Shown piece after piece: positions 2,245-64,000 of a stretch of 64,000 bases of DNA. Position numbers and translations under genes: made by a program. Below the pieces are notes generated by a model that did not search any database, was not told where the DNA came from, and saw only the letters and a list, made by a program, of their open reading frames with translations. Source of the DNA: a virus; IMG/VR virus record IMGVR_UViG_3300049165_000116, positions 2,196-66,195 of that record, one strand, 5' to 3'. Within the stretch, counting starts at the first letter, position 1, and each line of letters begins with the position of its first letter.

Positions 2245-3266
2245 GACCGCCTCCCGCCCCGGCTCTTACGGGCCGCGCGGGTGGTGCGCTTCGGCTGGGT
2301 GCGCTTGAGCCCGCGCCGCTGGCGCGGGAGAGTGGCCGGCGCCTCCTCCTGGGAGGCCTCCGCCGCGTCCCCGGCCGCGTCGGCCTCCGCCTCCAGGGCG
2401 ATCGCCTCCGGGTCGGGGGCGTGGAGGATCTGGACCCGGCCGTCCTCCCCGGCGCGGTCTGCCTCCACCAGGGCGCGGACCTCGGCGGAGACGGGGACCA
2501 CCTTCTCCAACTGGCGGGCGGCCGTCTTCCACCACATGTCATTGAAGTTGGTGTGCCAGAAGGAGTCCCGCGTCCCGGAGACCTCCGCCTCCAGGTACGC
2601 CCGGGAGTGCTCGTTTCGGATCTCCTCCGCCTGCTCCCGGTTGACGGTGACGACCTGGGAGCGGGCACCGTTCGTGAACCAGGCGAAGGCGTACGCGAAG
2701 AGGGGCGCGCCGCGGTCCGCCTCGGAGCGGGCGGGGTCGGTGCGGTGGGTGAAGTCCAGCGGGGACGGCGCGGACGGCTCCACGCTGTACTCGTCGTTCT
2801 CGTAGACCATGCCGACCCGCACGGAGGCGACCTGGCCGGAGCGGTGCATGAGCGCGATGTAGCCGCGGTATGTCGGAATGAACACGGCCCGGCCGTACTC
2901 GGCGGTGATGACCGCCTCGCGGCCGTCCGGCACCAGGCCGAACCGGGCCGCGGTCATGGTGGCCTGGAGCACGGAGGCGGGGTTGCAGGAGCGGAGCTCC
3001 GGGAGGACGGAGCGCACGGCGGCCAGGAACGGGCCGGGCTCCATGTGCTTGGGGAGGGCGTCGGTGACGTGGCCCTCGTACCGGCGGAGCCAGTCCATGA
3101 CGGCGTCCGCCGACTCCTGGACGGGGTCCGCCGCGGCGGCCTCCTCCAGGGTGGCCGGCCCCGCAGGGACGGCGGCCTCCTGTACGGAGGCCGGGGCCAG
3201 GCGCCCGCGCGTGGCGGGCGCCTGGATGTTCGCCAGGACACGGTCCCGGAGAGAGGTGAGGGCCAT
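2241..3266 (-). CDS. recT: RecT-family ssDNA annealing protein
   Basis: L..CNPASVL...AARFGLVPD, YRGYIALMHRSG, W.TNFNDMWWKTA; adjacent to YqaJ. Confidence 0.9.
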   Translation of the reverse strand: MALTSLRDRVLANIQAPATRGRLAPASVQEAAVPAGPATLEEAAAADPVQESADAVMDWLRRYEGHVTDALPKHMEPGPFLAAVRSVLPELRSCNPASVLQATMTAARFGLVPDGREAVITAEYGRAVFIPTYRGYIALMHRSGQVASVRVGMVYENDEYSVEPSAPSPLDFTHRTDPARSEADRGAPLFAYAFAWFTNGARSQVVTVNREQAEEIRNEHSRAYLEAEVSGTRDSFWHTNFNDMWWKTAARQLEKVVPVSAEVRALVEADRAGEDGRVQILHAPDPEAIALEAEADAAGDAAEASQEEAPATLPRQRRGLKRTQPKRTTRAARKSRGGRRS

Positions 3267-3269
3267 GGG

Positions 3270-4355
3270 TTACAGCTCCTTCTTCGGGACGTAGAGACGG
3301 CGGCCACGGCACGCGGCGTAAGCGGCCTCCTGCTCCGTCTTGATGCGGTCGAGGTCCAGGACCTCGACCGTCTTCGTGTACTGGGCGGCCAGGTCCGGGT
3401 ACTGCTCGCGGAAATCGGACTCGCTGAAGTTGCCGTTGGCCTTCCAGGTCCAGGCCGTGGCGGCCCCTACCCGGGCGATCTCCGCGGTGCCGGCCGTGTC
3501 CCGCATCTCGTTCTCCACGGCCGTCTTCCGCCGCGTGAGTTCCTTGATCTGCGCGTCCAGCTCGGCACGCTCCTTCCGGAGCTCCCGCGCCTTACGGAGG
3601 TCCACCTCCGCGATGGCCTCCGGCGCCACCTCGTAGAGCCGGCCGAGCAGGTCCTTGGTGGCCTCCAGGCCGTCCACCGGCGGCGGGAAACCCTCCACGA
3701 TGTGGCGCTCGTACCACTGGCCGCAGAACTCCAGGAGGTGGCCGATCATCTCCTCATCCCGGCGCACCATGTGCCACCGCAGCTTGTTGCCACCGACCAG
3801 GGCGGCCACATAGCCGACGTCGAACCCGCCCACGGCCATGCCCCAATGGCACTGGAGGGCGGGGGCGTCCGGCACGCCGTCCTCCCACTCCTCCAACTGG
3901 TATTCCGACCTGTTCTTGCACTCGACGGGCCCAGCGATGTTCCGCATGTCCGTGGCGGGGAGCTCGTCGTCCCACAGGGCGTACCGGTCGATGTTCACCA
4001 GCGCCCAGGGGTGGTCAACGTGGGCCAGGGTGCCGGGCGGTGTGGCGATGGGGGTGGCGGACCTCTTGGAGAACAGGCGGGCGATGAAGTCCTCGATCTC
4101 CCGGCCGATGTCCATGGCCTCGGTCTCCCGGGCGGCGTAGCGGCCGTGCTTCTCCTCGAACACGTGCCGCTGGCCGCGGTACTTGTCCAGGCCGACCAGG
4201 GCGGCGACGTCGGAACCGCCGATCCCGAGGCGGCGGACCGCCTCCCACTGCGCGCGGAACTCCGGGTCGTCCATGTCTCCGGCGGGGAGAACCAGGCGCG
4301 CGGTCGGGGCGACGAGTTCCCCCGGGGCCGGGGTGGTCAGGGTGGTGGTGCTCAT
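3270..4355 (-). CDS. YqaJ/lambda-exonuclease family recombination nuclease
   Basis: W..RRLGIGGSD, G...E, NIDR, VECK, LQCHW motifs. Confidence 0.9.
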   Translation of the reverse strand: MSTTTLTTPAPGELVAPTARLVLPAGDMDDPEFRAQWEAVRRLGIGGSDVAALVGLDKYRGQRHVFEEKHGRYAARETEAMDIGREIEDFIARLFSKRSATPIATPPGTLAHVDHPWALVNIDRYALWDDELPATDMRNIAGPVECKNRSEYQLEEWEDGVPDAPALQCHWGMAVGGFDVGYVAALVGGNKLRWHMVRRDEEMIGHLLEFCGQWYERHIVEGFPPPVDGLEATKDLLGRLYEVAPEAIAEVDLRKARELRKERAELDAQIKELTRRKTAVENEMRDTAGTAEIARVGAATAWTWKANGNFSESDFREQYPDLAAQYTKTVEVLDLDRIKTEQEAAYAACRGRRLYVPKKEL

Positions 4356-5176
4356 GCGGTCGCCTCCTGGCGGATGGTGCTCGCGGAGTAGCGGGAGGCG
4401 CCCTCCACGGTCAGGAAGTGCGCGGCCTGCCGCGCGGAGAGGTGGCCACGCTCGGCGGTGAGCTTCGCCTCCACGAGGCCGGCGGCCTCCTCGTGGCCGT
4501 TGAGCCGGAGGAGCGCGGCGGCCTGCTTCGCGTGCAGGCCGCGGGCCTCATCGGCGGCGTGGAGGACCAGCTCTACCGCGGCCCGGAAGACACCGGCACG
4601 GAGCGGGTCCGCCACGTGGTGGCCCCGGCCGCGGGCGGCGACCAGGGCGGCCGGGTCGATGAGGGGCGGCGTGCGGCGGGCCTCCTCCAGGACGTCCGCG
4701 TACACGTCGCCGTGTCCGCACGGGTTCACCCAGCGGTCCACCACCAGCGTGCGGGCCTGGAGCGGCATCTCCACCGGCTGGACGCGGTCCCAGCCACGCG
4801 GGCCACCGCACACCTGGCAGAACGGGAGGATGGAGACGGTGAGGACGCCGAGCTCCACCAGCTCCGTCGTCCCGATGCCAGCGGGGATACGGACCGTCAT
4901 CCGGTCCGGGATCTGGGAGTACGGGCCGCCAACCGTGGAGCGCACCCAGAGCACGGGGCCCTCCGGGGTCATGACGGCGTAGGCCTCGAACGCCCCGGCG
5001 GGCTCGTAGGACGGCATCCGCTCCGCGAGCGGGACCCGGCGGGCCGCGCTCTCCACGCTGGCAAGGGACGCGTAGACCGCGGCCCTGACCCACTGGCCCG
5101 GCTTGGAGCGCGCCTCCTCCGCCACGGCGGCGTGGGAGACACGGGTGCGGTGCGGCGATCCGACGACGGCCATCAC
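4352..5176 (-). CDS. Hypothetical phage protein
   Basis: Coupled ORF; CQVCGGPRG...W.NPCGH Zn-ribbon-like motif. Confidence 0.7.
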   Translation of the reverse strand: MMAVVGSPHRTRVSHAAVAEEARSKPGQWVRAAVYASLASVESAARRVPLAERMPSYEPAGAFEAYAVMTPEGPVLWVRSTVGGPYSQIPDRMTVRIPAGIGTTELVELGVLTVSILPFCQVCGGPRGWDRVQPVEMPLQARTLVVDRWVNPCGHGDVYADVLEEARRTPPLIDPAALVAARGRGHHVADPLRAGVFRAAVELVLHAADEARGLHAKQAAALLRLNGHEEAAGLVEAKLTAERGHLSARQAAHFLTVEGASRYSASTIRQEATA

Positions 5177-5861: not shown

Positions 5862-6012
5862 CGACGCTAGCGCGTAGCTTCGCGTAGTGCAAGAAACTAC
5901 GCACTACTGCGCGGCACTGCGCGCCCGGCGCGAAACTACGCGCTCGCGCGCCCCAAACGCGCCATGTATCCAGGGTCCGCTGGCGTAGTAGTGCGTAGTC
6001 ATGCGAAGCTGC
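5862..6012. promoter_or_regulatory. Divergent cro/cI control region with repeated GCGTAG/CTACGC operator-like half-sites
   Basis: About six GCGTAG or CTACGC copies in both orientations in 150 bp; GAAACTACGC twice. Confidence 0.6.
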
Positions 6013-6016
6013 CGCC

Positions 6017-6469
6017 ATGAATTCACGGACGCGACCTGAGCCCCCACCGGAGGCCGCGCTCATCGCCACAGCCCTCAAGAGATCCGGCCTCTCCGCCCGC
6101 AAGGCGGCACCGCTGGCGGGAATCGGTGAGGCCCGCTGGCGCCAGATCACCAGCGGCTACCAATCGGTCTCGGGCTCCCGAATCCCGGTGCGCGCACCGG
6201 ACGACACGCTTGCCCGTATGGCCGCCGTCGTCGGCGTCACCCCCGAGGAACTGCGCCAGAACGGCCGCCCGGAGGCCGCCGAGGAGCTGGAGCGGCTTAA
6301 AGCGACACCGCCCCCCCGGGCCACCGGACAGTTCTCGCCCCCGCTGGACGCCGTGACCGCCCTCCTGGCCGCCCTCACCCCCGAGGAGCAGGAGGAAGTC
6401 ATCCGCCGGCTACGCGAGCGCACCCCTACTCCGGGTGAGAGAGGGGACCAGCACCGTCAGGCCGGTTGA
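6017..6469 (+). CDS. CI-like immunity repressor (XRE HTH)
   Basis: GLSARKAAPLAGIGEARWRQITSG...TLARMAAVVGVTPEEL; divergent from cro-like gene. Confidence 0.8.
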   Translation: MNSRTRPEPPPEAALIATALKRSGLSARKAAPLAGIGEARWRQITSGYQSVSGSRIPVRAPDDTLARMAAVVGVTPEELRQNGRPEAAEELERLKATPPPRATGQFSPPLDAVTALLAALTPEEQEEVIRRLRERTPTPGERGDQHRQAG

Positions 6470-6569
6470 CTCATGTCACAGCTTGATTACAGATTCAAAT
6501 AGATCGCCAAAAGTTGCCACTTGGAAACGAACATGCACTCCACGTAACACCTGCACTTAGGGGGCCCAC

Positions 6570-7511
6570 GTGGGTGAAGTGGCAGAGTTGGTCGCAGATT
6601 TGGTCTTGGCCGGCGTGCTCGGCGCCGTCGTGCTCGCGCTGGTCTTGCTCTACCGAGCGAACCAGCGCAACCGTGCACGTATCTCCGAGCTCACCGCAGA
6701 ACTAGCAGCACAGAAGATCGCCGCCCTCACCATGGGCGGCGGCCTCACCTCCCTTCCACGGGACGACGATGAGGACCCCGACCTGGAGGCGGAGCCGGTC
6801 CGCCGGAAGCGACACCTTGCGCTCTACATGGGCGGTGGCGTCGTCGCCTTCGTCACCACGTTCGGGGACCGGGTTCGGGCAGCCGTCCGGGGGCGCCGCG
6901 TCACCGCCACCCTGACCGCCGCCACCCTTGCCGTCGCGGGCAGCGCTGCCCTGATGGTTACCTCCGGCAACGGAGCTAACGGCTCAGCCGAGGAGCGCCC
7001 CCAGGCCGCTCCTACCGCGCCCGCGAAGAAGCACGACGACCATGAGGACGAGGACGAGCCCGGCGGCCCGGTAGATGACGGCCTGGAGTCCGACGAAGAA
7101 GGGCCGGCCGAGCGCCTGAACGTGAACGGCGCCTCCCCGCTCCCCTTCCAGGCCGTGTCTCTGGAAGAGGGCGAGGCGCCGGCCGTCAGCCCGGCGTCTT
7201 CCTCCAGTTCCGCGCCCGGCAGCCCGGGAGCACCGTCCGGGCCTGGTAGCACTACCGGCCCCGACAGCACACCCGCGCCCGGCCGCACTACCGGCCCCGG
7301 CAGCCCGCCCGCGCCCGGCCGCATCCCAGGGCCGAGCACCGGCCCGACGCCGCCGGGCACCACGGCACCGGGGACGACCGCTCCGCCTACGACGGGGCCC
7401 GCTCCCAAGCCCAGCCCGACGCCTACGCCGTCGCCACCGAAGGAGGATGACGGGCTGGTCTGTGTGGACCTGCCGAAGGTCCTAGACCTCTGCCTCCTCG
7501 GCGCCGGATGA
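6570..7511 (+). CDS. Membrane protein with Pro/Thr/Gly-rich C-terminal stalk
   Basis: N-terminal TM, further hydrophobic segments, acidic then PGST-rich linker, terminal C..L...LCL. Confidence 0.75.
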   Translation: MGEVAELVADLVLAGVLGAVVLALVLLYRANQRNRARISELTAELAAQKIAALTMGGGLTSLPRDDDEDPDLEAEPVRRKRHLALYMGGGVVAFVTTFGDRVRAAVRGRRVTATLTAATLAVAGSAALMVTSGNGANGSAEERPQAAPTAPAKKHDDHEDEDEPGGPVDDGLESDEEGPAERLNVNGASPLPFQAVSLEEGEAPAVSPASSSSSAPGSPGAPSGPGSTTGPDSTPAPGRTTGPGSPPAPGRIPGPSTGPTPPGTTAPGTTAPPTTGPAPKPSPTPTPSPPKEDDGLVCVDLPKVLDLCLLGAG

Positions 7512-58453: not shown

Positions 58454-60097
58454 TCACCGGGTGCGGGTGCCTCCGCCGCCGATGGTGCGCCCGTACCGGG
58501 AGGCGCCGCGGGCGCCCTGGCCGCCGGTGGCCTGGCCGCGGCGTGCCGGGGAGTGAACGGCCGACGTCTTCAACGACTCCGCGGCGAAGGCCATGACCAC
58601 AGCGTCTCCCTTGTCCGGGCTGCGCCCCATGCGCTTGACCAACTTCTCCTTCGGCTCCACGCGGATCTTCGGCGGGACGCCGGTGACGGTGTCCCACGTC
58701 GGGGCGGTGAGGTCGGATAGGAGCTCGTCGTCCGGGGGGAGCATGATCTCCGGCTCGTACGTAGGGTCCAGGAGCTCGCGCATCCGCCAGTACGCCGCGG
58801 ACCGGAGGTTGGTGAACCCCCACTCCCCGTCCCTAGTGCGCGCGTTGCTCTTGGCAGAGCCGGTGTACGCCAGGACGGGGACGCCGAGCTCCCGGAGGCG
58901 GTCCACGACGCCTCCGCCGACGCCGATGGAGTCCACGACGGGGACCACCTCTCCGTCCTCTCCGGTGGCCGCCTGGACCCTGGCGGTGGTGCGCATGGTG
59001 TTCTCCCGGTCGTGGGTCTCCAGCTCCACGACGGCCGGGCCCCAGCGGTGGGCGAGGATGGTGGAGTCCCCGCCGGCGCGGGCGACGTCCACGCCGGTGT
59101 AGCGGCGGCCCTCGAGGTCTGGGCGGCCGGCCTGGTCCCACTCGTGCCACCGCTCCACGGCGGCCTCCACCCACGCGAGCGGGATGACGGAGTCCTCGTC
59201 CGACGCGTGGAACTCGCCGGCGACGCGGTTGGCGTACATGGCGGAGTCCCGGCCCCACTGGCGGGCGCGCTGCTCCGCCCAGGCCCGGGAGATCCGGCCG
59301 GCGGCGATGGCCTCCTCCAGGGTGACGTGGCGGACCCACCAGTCCTCCAGGCCGGGCGCCCTCCGGTGAATGTCGTAGAACCGGCCTGCCGGCGGCCCGG
59401 GCGTGCTGATCGCGAAGGCGAAGGCCTCCGGGAGCTCGCCCAGCGGGGCGTCCGTACGGCCGCCGGAGAAAGCACCCTCGACGGCGTCCCAGGTGGCGTC
59501 CGGGACGATCTTCGCCTCATCGATGAGGTACAGGAGGGAGTCGGCGTGGGCGCCCTCGATGAGCTCCGGCTTATGGGAGGCGACCGGGGTCGCGGCGCCG
59601 TTGTCCAACTTGAGGTTGAGCGCCAGGAGCTCGGTGCGCTCGGAGAACGGCGGCCGGCCTACCCGGTCCCACCGGATGCGCTTCGCCCACTTGCGGAGCT
59701 CGGGCACCAGGTACACGGCGAGGTGCCGCCAGGCGGAGGCCGTCATGATGACCTTCCAGTCGATCCCGGCGGCCTCCCTCGTGGTGGCGAACCACAGGAC
59801 GGTGATCGCGGCCTGGGCCGTCTTCCCGAGGCCGTGAGGGCCCCGTACGGCCACGCGGCGGTGTACGGGGATCGCACCCAGGACGTCCTGTTGGTAGGGG
59901 GTCAGGCCCTCCCCGGCCTCCCAGGCGATGCAGTCCCGCGCCCACCCCACCGGGTCATACATGTACCGCAGGACCCGGCGGGAGTTCTTCCGTACCCGGG
60001 CACGGCGGACGGTGTCCCGGACCTCGCGGAGGGCGGTGATGTCCCCGGTGCGGACGAGCTCCTGGACCTCGCGCTCCAGGTCCTCCCGGGTCCTCAC
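58454..60097 (-). CDS. terL: Terminase large subunit
   Basis: GPHGLGKT Walker A, LIDEA Walker B, GVDVAR and SPDKGDA nuclease motifs. Confidence 0.93.
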   Translation of the reverse strand: MRTREDLEREVQELVRTGDITALREVRDTVRRARVRKNSRRVLRYMYDPVGWARDCIAWEAGEGLTPYQQDVLGAIPVHRRVAVRGPHGLGKTAQAAITVLWFATTREAAGIDWKVIMTASAWRHLAVYLVPELRKWAKRIRWDRVGRPPFSERTELLALNLKLDNGAATPVASHKPELIEGAHADSLLYLIDEAKIVPDATWDAVEGAFSGGRTDAPLGELPEAFAFAISTPGPPAGRFYDIHRRAPGLEDWWVRHVTLEEAIAAGRISRAWAEQRARQWGRDSAMYANRVAGEFHASDEDSVIPLAWVEAAVERWHEWDQAGRPDLEGRRYTGVDVARAGGDSTILAHRWGPAVVELETHDRENTMRTTARVQAATGEDGEVVPVVDSIGVGGGVVDRLRELGVPVLAYTGSAKSNARTRDGEWGFTNLRSAAYWRMRELLDPTYEPEIMLPPDDELLSDLTAPTWDTVTGVPPKIRVEPKEKLVKRMGRSPDKGDAVVMAFAAESLKTSAVHSPARRGQATGGQGARGASRYGRTIGGGGTRTR

Positions 60098-60519
60098 GTC
60101 AGGTCACCGGCGCCGCCGTCGTCGCCCTCCAGGAGCGCCAGGATCTCGTCCCCGAGGCGCTGCGCCTCCACGTTGAGCCGGGTCGGAGCCTTCGTGCCCT
60201 CCACGTCCGCGCGGCCGGCGAGGCACTTGAGCACGATGTCCGCGGCTTTCTTGTCCTTCTCCTGGATGGCCAGGGGCCAGAACGCGGCCTGTAGGCGGTC
60301 GTACCGGGCGACGGTGAGGGCGCGCAGCTCCTCCACGTTGGCGTTCTGCTCCCGGAGGTTGGCTTTCAAGGCCTCCCCCACGGCGGTGCAGGCGGCGCCG
60401 GCGGAGGCGTAGCCGACGCGTTCAGCGATCGTCGCCCAGTCCACCCCGGCGACCCGGAGCGCGGTCGCCTGCGCCCTCTTCTTCGCCGCGGCGGCGCGCT
60501 GTGCTTTCGATGCGCCCAT
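60094..60519 (-). CDS. terS: Terminase small subunit (HTH)
   Basis: LRVAGVDWATIAERVGYAS; GTGA overlap with terL. Confidence 0.75.
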   Translation of the reverse strand: MGASKAQRAAAAKKRAQATALRVAGVDWATIAERVGYASAGAACTAVGEALKANLREQNANVEELRALTVARYDRLQAAFWPLAIQEKDKKAADIVLKCLAGRADVEGTKAPTRLNVEAQRLGDEILALLEGDDGGAGDLT

Positions 60520-60608
60520 GAGGCCCCCTCACTTTCCAGAGTCTTATGGGTTCCAGAGACGCCCGGGCCGGGTGGGCCTCCCGGCCGGGGTGGTACGGGG
60601 TGCCGGCG

Positions 60609-61385
60609 CTACGTGCCGGTGGGGGTGGCGAACGCGCCGACGACGCACCAGGAGTGCCAGCGGAACAGGACCTCGGGGCACGTCCAGCCGGCGGCGTTGA
60701 TCGCGGAGAGGAGGGTGGCCTCGGGGTACGGCTGGAGGACGCCGCGGAGCGCCCGGGCCTTCGCGCGGATCGCGGCGTCCGTGATGCCGTGCGCGGCCTT
60801 CCAGTCGTGGGAGGCCTCGGCGGCGATCTCCGCCCAGCGGGAGTCCGGGGGCCGCACCTTCTCCGCGACGATGAGCGCGCCGGTGGAGGCGGAGGCCTGG
60901 CGGGCGCCCGTGAGGACGGCGATCCGGTCCGGGACGGAGAGGAACTGGAGGGTGAAGAGGGCCACGGTGAGGTCCGCGTCCTCATGCGGGAGCCGTTCGT
61001 GGCGGAAGTCGCCGGGGACGTAGGCCACGTGGAGGTTGGAGAGGCCGCTCAGGTCCTCGGCTGCCCGGTCGAGCATCGCGGGCTCCCGGTCGTAGAGGAA
61101 GGCGCGGAGCTTGCGGCCGGGGTGGCGGGCGGCGATGCGGTGGGCGGTGGTGCCGGTGGAGGCGCCGAGGTCCGCGAGCGTGCCCTCATCCGGGAGGAGC
61201 CAGTCCGCGGCCTCGGCCACGAGGTCCTGGATCGCGTCGTAGAACGGCACGGAGGCGCGGACGTGCTCGGGGAAGACACTGGCCACCTCGGGCGTGAACT
61301 CCCAGGCGCCGGTGGTGAAGCGCTCCGCGATGTCCCCGGCCGGGACGGCGGTGGGGTCAGCCGTAGATGCGGGTGTGTTCTGCAC
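60609..61385 (-). CDS. CmoA-like carboxy-SAM synthase / methyltransferase
   Basis: W.F..EVA.VFP.H...SVP.Y, DLGASTG, FTLQFL, GALIVAEK, K...L.GVL parallel E. coli CmoA. Confidence 0.8.
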   Translation of the reverse strand: MQNTPASTADPTAVPAGDIAERFTTGAWEFTPEVASVFPEHVRASVPFYDAIQDLVAEAADWLLPDEGTLADLGASTGTTAHRIAARHPGRKLRAFLYDREPAMLDRAAEDLSGLSNLHVAYVPGDFRHERLPHEDADLTVALFTLQFLSVPDRIAVLTGARQASASTGALIVAEKVRPPDSRWAEIAAEASHDWKAAHGITDAAIRAKARALRGVLQPYPEATLLSAINAAGWTCPEVLFRWHSWCVVGAFATPTGT

Positions 61386-62769
61386 GGTAGTACCTCACGG
61401 GGTTGGGGAGGGCGCGGGTGATGAGGGGCTTCAAGCCCAGGCCGTCCTGGAACGCGACCTTTCCGCGGCGGGTGACGGAGGCGGGGAGGGCGTCGCGGTA
61501 GGCGGCGGAGAGCACGGCTTTGCGGCCGGTGGGGGTGTCGGCGTCCCGTACGACGTCCATGGGCATGGAGAGCGCCAGGGTGACCAGGTCGGGGTCCAGG
61601 AAGGGGAGGCGGCCCTCCACGCCGGCGCTCATGAACGCTTTGTTCACGCGGGGGAAGTTGCGGACGGCCTGGGCGTGGATGAGGTCGCGGCGGGCGCGGT
61701 ACCAGCCGTGAGCCTGGATGCTCCGGTAGGCGAAGCCGTAGGAGGCCCAGAGTTCGTCCGAGCCCTCGCCGGAGTAGGTGACCCGGTACCCGTCCGCGCT
61801 CATCGCCTCCGCGAGGGCGAGGCACGGCCAGGCGATCTCCACCTGTGCTTTGTACGGCTGCTCAATGACCGCCAGGGCGTGGGAGAGGTCGTCCGCGGTG
61901 GGCGGCTCCACCGGGACCTCCACGAGCGTCACGCCGAGCGCTTCGGCGGTCTCCCGCGCGCACCGGAGGTCCGCGGAGCGGGGGTCCAGGACGGCGGTGT
62001 ACGTGGTGAGGCCGGGGTGGTGGCGGACCAGCTCGGCGACGATGGCGGCGGAGTCGATGCCGCCGGAGAGGAGCGCGCACACCGGCACGTCGGAGATGAC
62101 GCGGCGGTCTACCGCGCGGGCCAGGGCGTGGCGGAGCGCCGGCGCGGCGGTCTCGCGGGTGAGCCCGGGGTCCGGGGTGGCGGTGAGCTGGTGGTAGACG
62201 TGGCGGGTGATGGCGCCGGCGGGGTAGAGCTCCCACCACTCCCCGGGCTCCACGTCCACCACGGCTTTCCCGCAGCGCCGGCCGAGCGCGCGGAAGGCCT
62301 TGAGCTCGGAGGCCACCAGGAGCGGGAGGGCGCGGTGGACGTGGAGCGGGACCTCGCCGTGGCGGTCACGCGCGGCGTGGAGGACGCCGGGCCGGCGGGT
62401 GTCGTGCCAGGCGAGGCCGTACATGCCGTCCAGCTCCGGGAGCGCGGTGGCGGGGCCGAGGACGGCCAGGGCCGCGGCCACCACCTCCGTGTCCCCCGAG
62501 GTGCGCCAGGTGCGCCGCGGGTCGGCGGCCTCCACCAGGGTCCGCACGCGCGGGGCGTTGAACAGCTCGCCGTTGTAGACCAGGGTGACCGGGCCGTCCC
62601 GGTACGGCTGGTCCGAGCGGGCGCCGGGGTCCTGGATCGCCAGGCGGGTGTGGCCGAGGGCCACGCCGGGCTCCTGCACGGTGGCGGAGGAGTCGGGGCC
62701 GCGGTGCGCCAGGGCCTCCACCGCGGGGGTCAGGTCCACGTGGCCGGTGGCGCCGATGATGCCGCACAC
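61357..62769 (-). CDS. AsnB-like glutamine-dependent amidotransferase
   Basis: MCGI, HRGPD, HTRLAI, YNGE, DTEV, LSGGIDS, SGEGSDE, E.R.PFLD. Confidence 0.93.
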   Translation of the reverse strand: MCGIIGATGHVDLTPAVEALAHRGPDSSATVQEPGVALGHTRLAIQDPGARSDQPYRDGPVTLVYNGELFNAPRVRTLVEAADPRRTWRTSGDTEVVAAALAVLGPATALPELDGMYGLAWHDTRRPGVLHAARDRHGEVPLHVHRALPLLVASELKAFRALGRRCGKAVVDVEPGEWWELYPAGAITRHVYHQLTATPDPGLTRETAAPALRHALARAVDRRVISDVPVCALLSGGIDSAAIVAELVRHHPGLTTYTAVLDPRSADLRCARETAEALGVTLVEVPVEPPTADDLSHALAVIEQPYKAQVEIAWPCLALAEAMSADGYRVTYSGEGSDELWASYGFAYRSIQAHGWYRARRDLIHAQAVRNFPRVNKAFMSAGVEGRLPFLDPDLVTLALSMPMDVVRDADTPTGRKAVLSAAYRDALPASVTRRGKVAFQDGLGLKPLITRALPNPVRYYRAEHTRIYG

Positions 62770-62771
62770 GG

Positions 62772-63983
62772 TCAGATCACCCCCCGTTCGCGGAGGGGGA
62801 TGAGGACCTGGTCCCGTACGGCTGCGGCGATGTGGCTCATCATCACCGGGGGGACGGCGCGGCCGATGCGCTCCCAGCGCTGCTCATAGGTGCCGGTGAG
62901 GACGAAGTCCGGGGGGAACCCGCCGATGGCGCGGAGCTCCTGGAGGGTGAGTTTCCGGGCCTCCGCGAAGTGGGTGACGGAGGCCTTCGTGACGTTCCCG
63001 CCCTCGGCGGTGATCGTCTGGGACGGCTTGTCCGGGTCGATGCGCTTGAGCGAAAAGAACCGCTCCGAGGAGCCGCCGCGCGGGGTGTCGCGCCAGGCCT
63101 CCCCGATGGCGTACCGGCCGATGTGAATGCTCTTGCCGGTCTCTGGGTCGTGGGTGACCTCTTGGCCCTCGGCGGGGTCCAGGACGCGGAAGTGGTACGA
63201 GTTCATGGCGTCGGTGCCGACGGTGATTGCCGGGCTCGGCTTGTCGGTGACGTCGCCCTGGCCGCGGGCGCCGGAGGTGTCGTGGACGAGTCGGGGAACG
63301 GTCGGGAGGGCGTCGCGGACGGTGTACTGGTAGGGCAGCGGCCGGGGGAACGCCGGCGGGAGCTCTAGGTCCTCTCGGACGCCGACGAAGATGAGCCGCT
63401 GGCGGGACTGCGGGACGCCGAGGCGGGAGGCGTCCAGGAGCCGGGCCTCCACGCGGTAGCCGCAGGCCTTGAGCGTGGCCAGGATCTCCAGGAAATAGCC
63501 CTTCGCCGTGCCCTTGATCAGGCCGGACACGTTCTCCGCGACGAACGTGCGGGGCTGGAGGTCCCGGAGGATGCGGGCGAACTCGAAGAAGAGGTCATCG
63601 GTGCGCTGCGCGGTGTCGCTGTAGGCCTTGACCTTCCCCCACCCGGCCTCCCGCTTGCCCATGGTGGAGAACGAGGCGCACGGCGGGGAGCCGTCCCAGA
63701 GGTCCAGCTCGCCCACGGCGAGGCCGGTGGCGGCGCAGATGTCGGCGGCGGTCACCTCGCGGATGTCCCGGGTGTCCAGGACGGTGTACGGGGCGGCGTT
63801 GGCGCGGTAGGTCTCCTGGGCGGCCGGGATGAACTCCGAGGCCCAGAGCACGCGGAACCCGCCCATGCGGTAGCCGAGGGAGGAACCGCCGCAGCCGGAG
63901 AACGAGGAGGCGGCGTTGAACCCGTTCCACGGGATGGCGGCGATCTCAGCCATGGCCGGCACGCGATACGGAGGCTTCGCCAT
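62772..63983 (-). CDS. DNA cytosine-C5 methyltransferase homologue with Arg in motif X
   Basis: FSGCGG (I), GSPPC (IV), ENV (VI), QSRQR (VIII), IGRAVPP (X). Confidence 0.95.
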   Translation of the reverse strand: MAKPPYRVPAMAEIAAIPWNGFNAASSFSGCGGSSLGYRMGGFRVLWASEFIPAAQETYRANAAPYTVLDTRDIREVTAADICAATGLAVGELDLWDGSPPCASFSTMGKREAGWGKVKAYSDTAQRTDDLFFEFARILRDLQPRTFVAENVSGLIKGTAKGYFLEILATLKACGYRVEARLLDASRLGVPQSRQRLIFVGVREDLELPPAFPRPLPYQYTVRDALPTVPRLVHDTSGARGQGDVTDKPSPAITVGTDAMNSYHFRVLDPAEGQEVTHDPETGKSIHIGRYAIGEAWRDTPRGGSSERFFSLKRIDPDKPSQTITAEGGNVTKASVTHFAEARKLTLQELRAIGGFPPDFVLTGTYEQRWERIGRAVPPVMMSHIAAAVRDQVLIPLRERGVI

Positions 63984-64000
63984 GGCGTCCAGGGCCGGGC

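Follow-up and report, generated by a model that had tools for sequence, protein, structure and literature searches.

The 64,000-nucleotide stretch analysed here (the window) comprises bases 2196-66195 of the 66,195-base linear virus record IMGVR_UViG_3300049165_000116 from IMG/VR, and close to its right end it encodes a C5 cytosine methyltransferase homologue of 403 amino acids in which the canonical asparagine of motif X is replaced by arginine. This raises the question of whether the substitution equips the enzyme to transfer a carboxymethyl group from carboxy-S-adenosylmethionine (Cx-SAM) rather than a methyl group from S-adenosylmethionine (SAM). We consider it likely, with good confidence, that the gene specifies a CmoX-type DNA cytosine C5-carboxymethyltransferase of a Streptomyces-type phage and belongs to a three-step Cx-SAM pathway, and by analogy with a characterised homologue the arginine, Arg375, very probably lets the enzyme use Cx-SAM. 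The idea that such an arginine pairs with the Cx-SAM carboxylate has been in print since December 2025, together with a crystal structure (PMC12783734), and judged by its sequence the window protein would fall within the CmoX family described there, in the subtype with a glutaminase-bearing ligase.

The motif X substitution is evident from direct reading of the sequence. The reverse complement of plus strand positions 62847-62867 is ATC GGC CGC GCC GTC CCC CCG, which encodes I-G-R-A-V-P-P, residues 373-379, and the initial annotation had placed the G-R-A-V reading and its Arg codon correctly. The protein, which ends in ...YEQRWERIGRAVPPVMMSHIAAAVRDQVLIPLRERGVI, scores 174 bits with PF00145 and 162.8 bits with TIGR00675, and pattern searches locate motif I (FSGCGGSSLG, starting at residue 28), motif IV (GSPPCASFS, 98), motif VI (ENVSG, 150), motif VIII (QSRQR, fitting QxRxR, 192) and a motif IX-like sequence (RKLTLQE, 343). 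HMMER alignments place Arg375 opposite the motif X Asn of both M.HaeIII (IGNAVP) and a DNMT1 chain (IGNAVPP), and in the HaeIII alignment Ala103 stands opposite the Gln of HaeIII PCQ. The proposal that motifs I, IV, VI and VIII are all intact thus holds for I, VI, VIII and the Pro-Cys of motif IV, but not for the motif IV Gln, where the window protein reads PCA; instead of the pair typical of SAM-using enzymes (Asn in a motif X of the form G-N-[AS]-V, together with Gln after Pro-Cys) it has Arg375 and Ala103. Both G-R-[AS]-V-P-P and GSPPC are present in all 120 of the closest database relatives listed (54-91% identity), and this conservation of the motif X sequence argues that Arg375 is no chance substitution.

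The closest structural counterpart of the window methyltransferase is an enzyme whose cofactor use is known. Its best sequence match in the PDB is 8YF3 (E 3.3e-61), and in the second aligned stretch the window segment ...WERIGRAVPPVMM pairs with ...TERVGRMVPPLMM, in which the Arg of the chain is residue 350 by counting; HMMER and BLASTP alignments alike put Arg375 opposite this residue. 8YF3 is the 1.9 Å structure, with Cx-SAM, of SpCmoX, described by Yang et al. (Nat Commun, December 2025; PMC12783734) together with CmoA and CmoY of Synechococcus phage S-B43, and the window protein and SpCmoX share 37% identity across 386 aligned positions (E 1e-72). An AlphaFold2 model of the window protein, built with 75 aligned sequences, has a predicted local distance difference test score (pLDDT) of 92.3, and Foldseek again ranks 8YF3 first among PDB structures (E 1.6e-29, template modelling score 0.81 on the target), ahead of HaeIII, HhaI and DNMT1. 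In SpCmoX, Arg350 replaces Asn304 of HhaI and directly contacts the carboxymethyl group; the wild-type enzyme accepts Cx-SAM only and the R350N mutant accepts neither cofactor (PMC12783734). The S-B43 CmoA synthesises Cx-SAM, which CmoX uses to form 5-carboxymethylcytosine at GC sites, and the modified DNA resists HhaI (PMC12783734). All four of these properties (the Arg-carboxylate contact, the exclusive use of Cx-SAM, CmoA activity and HhaI resistance) were demonstrated in the S-B43 system, and would extend to the window by homology. The SPPC signature of CmoX (S95-C98 in SpCmoX) aligns with the G-S-P-P-C at residues 98-102 of the window protein, which therefore combines a C5 methyltransferase fold, SPPC, an Arg at the position of SpCmoX Arg350, and a CmoA-like neighbouring gene. 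By analogy, the Arg350 contact and its alignment with Arg375 favour the original suggestion of a natural pairing between this Arg and the carboxylate of Cx-SAM.

The engineered M.MpeI N374K enzyme, which the initial annotation had cited as a precedent for Cx-SAM use, is documented as such in the available excerpts of PMC13288465 and PMC12015181, and the Discussion of PMC12783734 states that the CmoX Arg mirrors it. M.MpeI (4DKJ) is not among the 48 PDB sequence matches for the full window protein, the 33 matches for its C-terminal 72 residues (E up to 10), or the best 50 Foldseek rows, and the equivalence of Arg375 with M.MpeI N374 is drawn from the HaeIII and DNMT1 Asn residues, HhaI Asn304 and the statements in PMC12783734.

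We examined whether the motif X residue goes with genomic context by taking loci from viral contigs and from genome contigs, classifying each methyltransferase by its motif X, and searching the flanks for CmoA-like open reading frames (ORFs). The Asn-type controls are mainly from genome contigs, the Asn-led viral scan having given mostly the same Arg-type contigs, and one search pattern in the genome-contig scan favoured Gln or Thr after Pro-Cys. Three loci with no methyltransferase ORF (L136-L138) were dropped before counting, duplicate methyltransferase sequences were collapsed (34 viral rows and several genome rows), and six loci in which motif X is cut off (viral L059 and L081; genome L182, L183, L215 and L216) were left out of the pooled set of 163. 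The Arg-type and Asn-type enzymes are close relatives, both 45-60% identical to the window protein. Roughly 1,100 clusters have an E-value of up to 1e-30. In the closest 150 representatives of 50%-identity clusters, the motif X residue is Arg 68 times, Asn 54 times and Asp eight times, with Leu, Met, Cys and Gln once each and 16 sequences unreadable at this point; no Lys-type sequence is present among the 297 natural relatives classified.

In the 91 unique viral loci, a CmoA-like ORF is present at 75 of the 76 Arg-type loci and at none of those of the other types (10 Asn, two Asp, one Gln, and two with motif X cut off). The 80 genome-contig loci behave alike, with a CmoA-like ORF at 60 of 61 Arg-type loci and at none of the 14 Asn, one Met and four cut-off loci. 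When pooled as 163 unique-sequence loci, the window included, the counts are 133/135 for Arg-type and 0/28 for non-Arg (24 Asn, two Asp, one Gln and one Met; Fisher p = 1.8e-29, uncorrected for relatedness). The CmoA-like ORF lies within 2 kb in 130 of the 132 fetched Arg-type loci having one, and a match to TIGR00740 is present in 76 of 76 CmoA-like ORFs, among them that of the window. The flank available at the 28 non-Arg loci is at least 2 kb downstream in 18 and at least 2 kb on both sides in seven. The reverse search, seeded on CmoA, added 77 further viral loci, of which 22 have an Arg-type C5 methyltransferase, one could not be read, and none has an Asn-type enzyme.

In the window, the methyltransferase gene is the first of three genes transcribed from the minus strand (Table 1), and is followed, after a 2-nucleotide gap, by an AsnB-like ligase gene, which in turn overlaps a CmoA-like gene by 29 nucleotides. 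Downstream of the CmoA-like gene are a gene for a 141-residue protein and then that for the large terminase (PHROG 2). The methyltransferase ORF is open upstream to the contig end (position 64000), so the true start may be up to approximately 20 residues upstream of the assigned ATG, as in relatives of 423-424 residues. A scan of positions 59900-64000 for promoters and terminators gave nothing above the shuffled background.

Table 1. Coordinates in the window of the three cassette genes and of the codons discussed in the text.
Feature	Coordinates	Strand	Basis
CmoX-type C5 cytosine methyltransferase homologue, 403 aa	62772..63983	minus	ATG at 63983; PF00145, 8YF3 match
Arg375 codon CGC, motif X (G-R-A-V-P-P), canonical Asn position	62859..62861	minus	direct reading
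Cys102 (catalytic nucleophile, motif IV) and Ala103 codons; Ala103 at canonical Gln position (HhaI Gln82)	63675..63680	minus	GSPPCASFS
AsnB-like glutamine-hydrolysing amide ligase, 470 aa; putative CmoY analogue of the glutaminase-bearing type	61357..62769	minus	PF13522/PF13537 + PF00733
CmoA-like putative carboxy-SAM synthase, 258 aa	60609..61385	minus	TIGR00740, 4GEK match

The CmoA-like protein falls in PHROG 4752 and matches TIGR00740 (CmoA) best among NCBIfam families (E 1.8e-28) and E. coli CmoA, 4GEK, best in the PDB (E 5.6e-21); it is 25% identical (E 3e-18) to SpCmoA, which is experimentally active (PMC12783734). The ligase has a class II glutaminase domain (GATase_6/7) beginning MCGIIG, such that the Cys nucleophile directly follows Met1, joined to an Asn_synthase domain with the PP-loop SGGIDS, and in the PDB it is most similar to E. 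coli AsnB, 1CT9 (E 3.4e-36, both domains aligned). It is 76% identical over its full length to gp124 of Streptomyces phage TurkishDelight, which by exact look-up is UniRef100_A0A7T0Q3R0, well above the network threshold of approximately 30% used in PMC12783734. That sequence represents the second-largest ligase cluster described there, whose proteins bear a glutaminase domain and are predicted to draw their ammonia from glutamine; SpCmoY, the ligase that was characterised, adds glycine instead (PMC12783734). Using the window ligase as the query, we found no AsnB-like match at 106 of 134 Arg-type loci (window excluded), strong matches at 19 and weak matches at nine; many cassettes may thus consist of CmoX and CmoA only, or have ligases invisible to this query. 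The published survey searched IMG/VR v4 and further sources with the SPPC plus R350 signature and collected 5,615 CmoX candidates, whose contigs also carry 4,257 CmoA genes and 2,251 ligases (PMC12783734).

These components can be arranged in a plausible pathway. The CmoA-like enzyme would first convert SAM and prephenate to Cx-SAM, which the methyltransferase homologue would then use by the ordinary C5 mechanism, with Cys102 attacking C6 of a flipped-out cytosine and Glu150 of the ENV motif together with the motif VIII arginines holding the base. Arg375, at the motif X Asn position, would bind the Cx-SAM carboxylate, and Ala103 would probably give room for the larger group and disfavour plain methyl transfer, such that carboxymethyl and not methyl is transferred and the predicted product is 5-carboxymethylcytosine. 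In a third step the AsnB-like enzyme would adenylate the carboxylate and amidate it with glutamine-derived ammonia to give 5-carbamoylmethylcytosine, a modification that would shield the phage DNA from host nucleases. The first two steps are extrapolated from the experiments on the S-B43 homologues, and the third is a prediction. We found no report of 5-carbamoylmethylcytosine in DNA in the limited literature searched, which included work on hypermodification in Streptomyces phages and extended to the papers without their supplements.

Several observations weigh against this reading or narrow it. The chemistry is known only at 37% identity to the window protein and for no close relative, and the target-recognition region (approximately residues 207-308) aligns unconvincingly with SpCmoX, such that the GC specificity of SpCmoX cannot be transferred and any target sequence assigned to the window enzyme would be conjectural. 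The CmoA-like protein scores 99.8 bits, under the 193.3-bit TIGR00740 equivalog cut-off, and the ligase scores 226.7 bits with TIGR01536, under its cut-off of 267.1. No soluble protein was obtained for the A0A7T0Q3R0 cluster of ligases, and its amide product is a prediction (PMC12783734). Two Arg-type loci have no CmoA-like ORF (L053 and L214, both at contig edges), and 54 of the 77 CmoA-seeded loci have no C5 methyltransferase of any kind, so that a phage CmoA does not by itself imply CmoX. In a FastTree phylogeny of the 297 sequences, built from an alignment that retained the columns of motifs X and IV, the state changes between Arg and non-Arg at least 12 times, but few of these changes provide independent contrasts with known context (two on supported branches, five on all branches); all are in the expected direction and the sign test gives p = 0.5. 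The enrichment of Arg-type enzymes beside cmoA-like genes, which the initial annotation had proposed as a check, is thus clear in the raw counts but not significant after phylogenetic correction and, with only two to five independent contrasts, the counts could largely reflect the inheritance of whole operons.

The window enzyme could alternatively be an ordinary SAM-dependent 5-methylcytosine methyltransferase in which the Arg is a tolerated quirk of the lineage and the CmoA- and AsnB-like neighbours serve, for example, tRNA or host metabolism. It does have the fold and all of the catalytic motifs of C5 methyltransferases, its relatives are annotated as plain methyltransferases, and the engineered M.MpeI N374K and M.MedI N377K enzymes still methylate with SAM, according to the available excerpts of PMC13288465 and PMC12015181. 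We nonetheless regard this as very improbable, given that wild-type SpCmoX refuses SAM (PMC12783734), that the Arg is fixed in the 120 close relatives listed, that CmoA-like neighbours divide so sharply between Arg-type and non-Arg loci, and that the motif IV Gln, important for HhaI methyl transfer in the portion of PMC3526304 consulted, is lost as well. A less drastic departure is that the transferase uses Cx-SAM but that the pathway ends in something other than 5-carbamoylmethylcytosine, with the AsnB-like enzyme ligating some other amine or acting on a different substrate. The glycine attached by SpCmoY gives some reason to consider this, as do the limited resemblance of the window ligase to that 271-residue protein (only the PP-loop region is shared, 27% over 110 residues, E 2e-4), the lack of any assay of a glutaminase-type ligase (PMC12783734), and the score of the window ligase under the asparagine synthase equivalog cut-off. 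It seems unlikely, since the Cys nucleophile after Met1 and the two-domain alignment with E. coli AsnB correspond to an ammonia-delivering architecture, the ligase gene sits tightly between those for CmoX and CmoA, and the three-gene order CmoX-ligase-CmoA recurs in relatives.

A third proposition accepts Cx-SAM as the cofactor but holds that Arg375 alone is not the cofactor switch, and that specificity for Cx-SAM needs at least two linked changes, Asn to Arg in motif X to accommodate the carboxylate, and Gln to Ala or Ser in motif IV to provide space and suppress methyl transfer. Of 203 Arg-type sequences, 190 have Ala (140) or Ser (50) directly after Pro-Pro-Cys and just one has Gln, whereas Gln occupies this position in 62 of 78 Asn-type sequences and Glu does so in nine of ten Asp-type sequences. 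SpCmoX itself has Ser at this position, and its R350N mutant regains no use of SAM (PMC12783734). In HhaI, Gln82 of motif IV and Asn304 of motif X together flank the transferable group, and Q82A lowers methylation approximately 16-fold and helps the transfer of larger groups, as described in the consulted portion of PMC3526304. Set against this, the basis for the proposition is covariation among related sequences and not experiment, the main text of PMC12783734 does not mention the motif IV position, and in M.MpeI and M.MedI a single Asn-to-Lys change is enough for useful Cx-SAM activity (available excerpts of PMC13288465 and PMC12015181). We see this as a question that could go either way. 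The covariation suggests that the natural Cx-SAM enzymes changed both the motif X and the motif IV positions, which would fit the failure of SpCmoX R350N to revert to SAM use.

The CmoX-type assignment thus remains our preferred reading of the window gene. A broader formulation, which we offer tentatively and judge to be somewhat short of an even proposition, is that a two-residue switch parts the Cx-SAM transferases from their closest SAM-using relatives (45-55% identical) and has perhaps been gained or lost repeatedly, and that the Streptomyces-phage clade has a glutaminase-type pathway ending in 5-carbamoylmethylcytosine. The motif IV change could aid the design of cleaner Cx-SAM-specific enzymes for methylation mapping, and could account for the loss of activity with both cofactors, rather than a reversion to SAM, in SpCmoX R350N. 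The Arg signature distinguishes cytosine carboxymethyltransferases from ordinary methyltransferases by sequence, a use already in print; it also corrects the plain "methyltransferase" labels on relatives of the window protein, and draws attention to phage DNA with possible resistance to restriction enzymes and possible odd behaviour in sequencing.

The survey also yielded observations on related loci and other potential partners of CmoA. At 35 of the 54 CmoA-seeded loci without a C5 methyltransferase, CmoA adjoins a protein of 500-560 residues in PHROG 5475, which has no function label (L265:3841-5517, with its CmoA-like gene at 5953-6705; L235:7502-9070; and 33 further loci). This protein has an N-terminal ParB_N-like domain, and a structural model of it (pLDDT 81.9) resembles both ParB/Noc and class I SAM methyltransferases. 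Its C-terminal domain is found in none of the 23 CmoX-bearing loci, which makes the protein an apparent alternative partner of phage Cx-SAM. In the viral loci L239 (5162-5971 and 5911-6690) and L241, a CmoA-like gene directly follows a Methyltransf_9 gene (PF08003), which we take to be the CmoB family, accompanied by a large glycosyltransferase fusion; no DNA methyltransferase is present near the pair in L239.

The Asp-type relatives noted among the 150 nearest cluster representatives (P0188, P0206, P0209, P0213, P0234, P0250, P0252 and P0267) have G-D-[AS]-V-P-P together with P-C-E-P in motif IV, and a CmoA-like gene is absent from both Asp-type viral loci. In L133, the Asp-type methyltransferase gene (1019-2893) has a ParB_N-like gene on one side and the terminase on the other; the ORF that comes after it, of 510 codons (2896-4425), gave no lead with Pfam, NCBIfam, PDB or Atlas. 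One Verrucomicrobiota metagenome-assembled genome (JAKQDD01) has six separate CmoX-CmoA loci on different contigs (L143, L145, L147, L149, L154 and L155), and several other Verrucomicrobia assemblies also have multiple copies, which suggests a multi-copy mobile element or prophage family. P0227 (818 residues) aligns with the methyltransferase at its N-terminus and resembles the end of the window AsnB-like ligase at its C-terminus, and may be a natural methyltransferase-ligase fusion or a read-through of two genes. In the window, the 141-residue protein encoded after the CmoA-like gene and before that of the large terminase (60094-60519, minus strand) has no Pfam match; its best PHROG is 645 (E 1.4e-27), labelled 'Rnase E', and its gene is at the position where the small terminase subunit is expected.

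Compared with known systems, the window cassette is closest to that of Streptomyces phage TurkishDelight (NC_073473), the nearest GenBank phage, with 84% nucleotide identity over 3.4 kb. TurkishDelight gp123-gp125 are the same three genes in the same order, with methyltransferases approximately 90% identical, and are annotated as a methyltransferase, a glutamine amidotransferase domain protein, and a methyltransferase; both cassettes are known from sequence alone. TurkishDelight has two ParB-like genes just upstream of its methyltransferase gene, the point at which the window's record ends, and there is no ParB_N match in the rest of that record. The S-B43 system is more distant. SpCmoX and the window protein have in common the C5 methyltransferase fold, SPPC, the motif X Arg, a small residue in place of the motif IV Gln, and genes encoded beside CmoA and a ligase of the asparagine synthetase family, but the middle, target-recognition regions of the two enzymes are not comparable. 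The gene order is CmoA-CmoY-CmoX in S-B43 and CmoX-ligase-CmoA in the window, S-B43 is a cyanophage whereas the window is from a high-GC actinobacterial phage, and the S-B43 ligase is a synthetase-only protein that adds glycine, in contrast to the glutaminase-bearing ligase of the window.

The engineered enzymes M.MpeI N374K and M.MedI N377K resemble the window protein in having a cationic motif X side chain with a proposed salt bridge to the Cx-SAM carboxylate, and differ from it in being CpG-specific laboratory mutants with Lys rather than Arg that keep their SAM activity (PMC13288465 and PMC12015181, in the available excerpts). M.HhaI and M.HaeIII share the fold, the catalytic Cys, ENV and QxRxR with the window protein, and differ from it in having the motif X Asn and a Gln after Pro-Cys, the two positions at which the window protein has Arg375 and Ala103.

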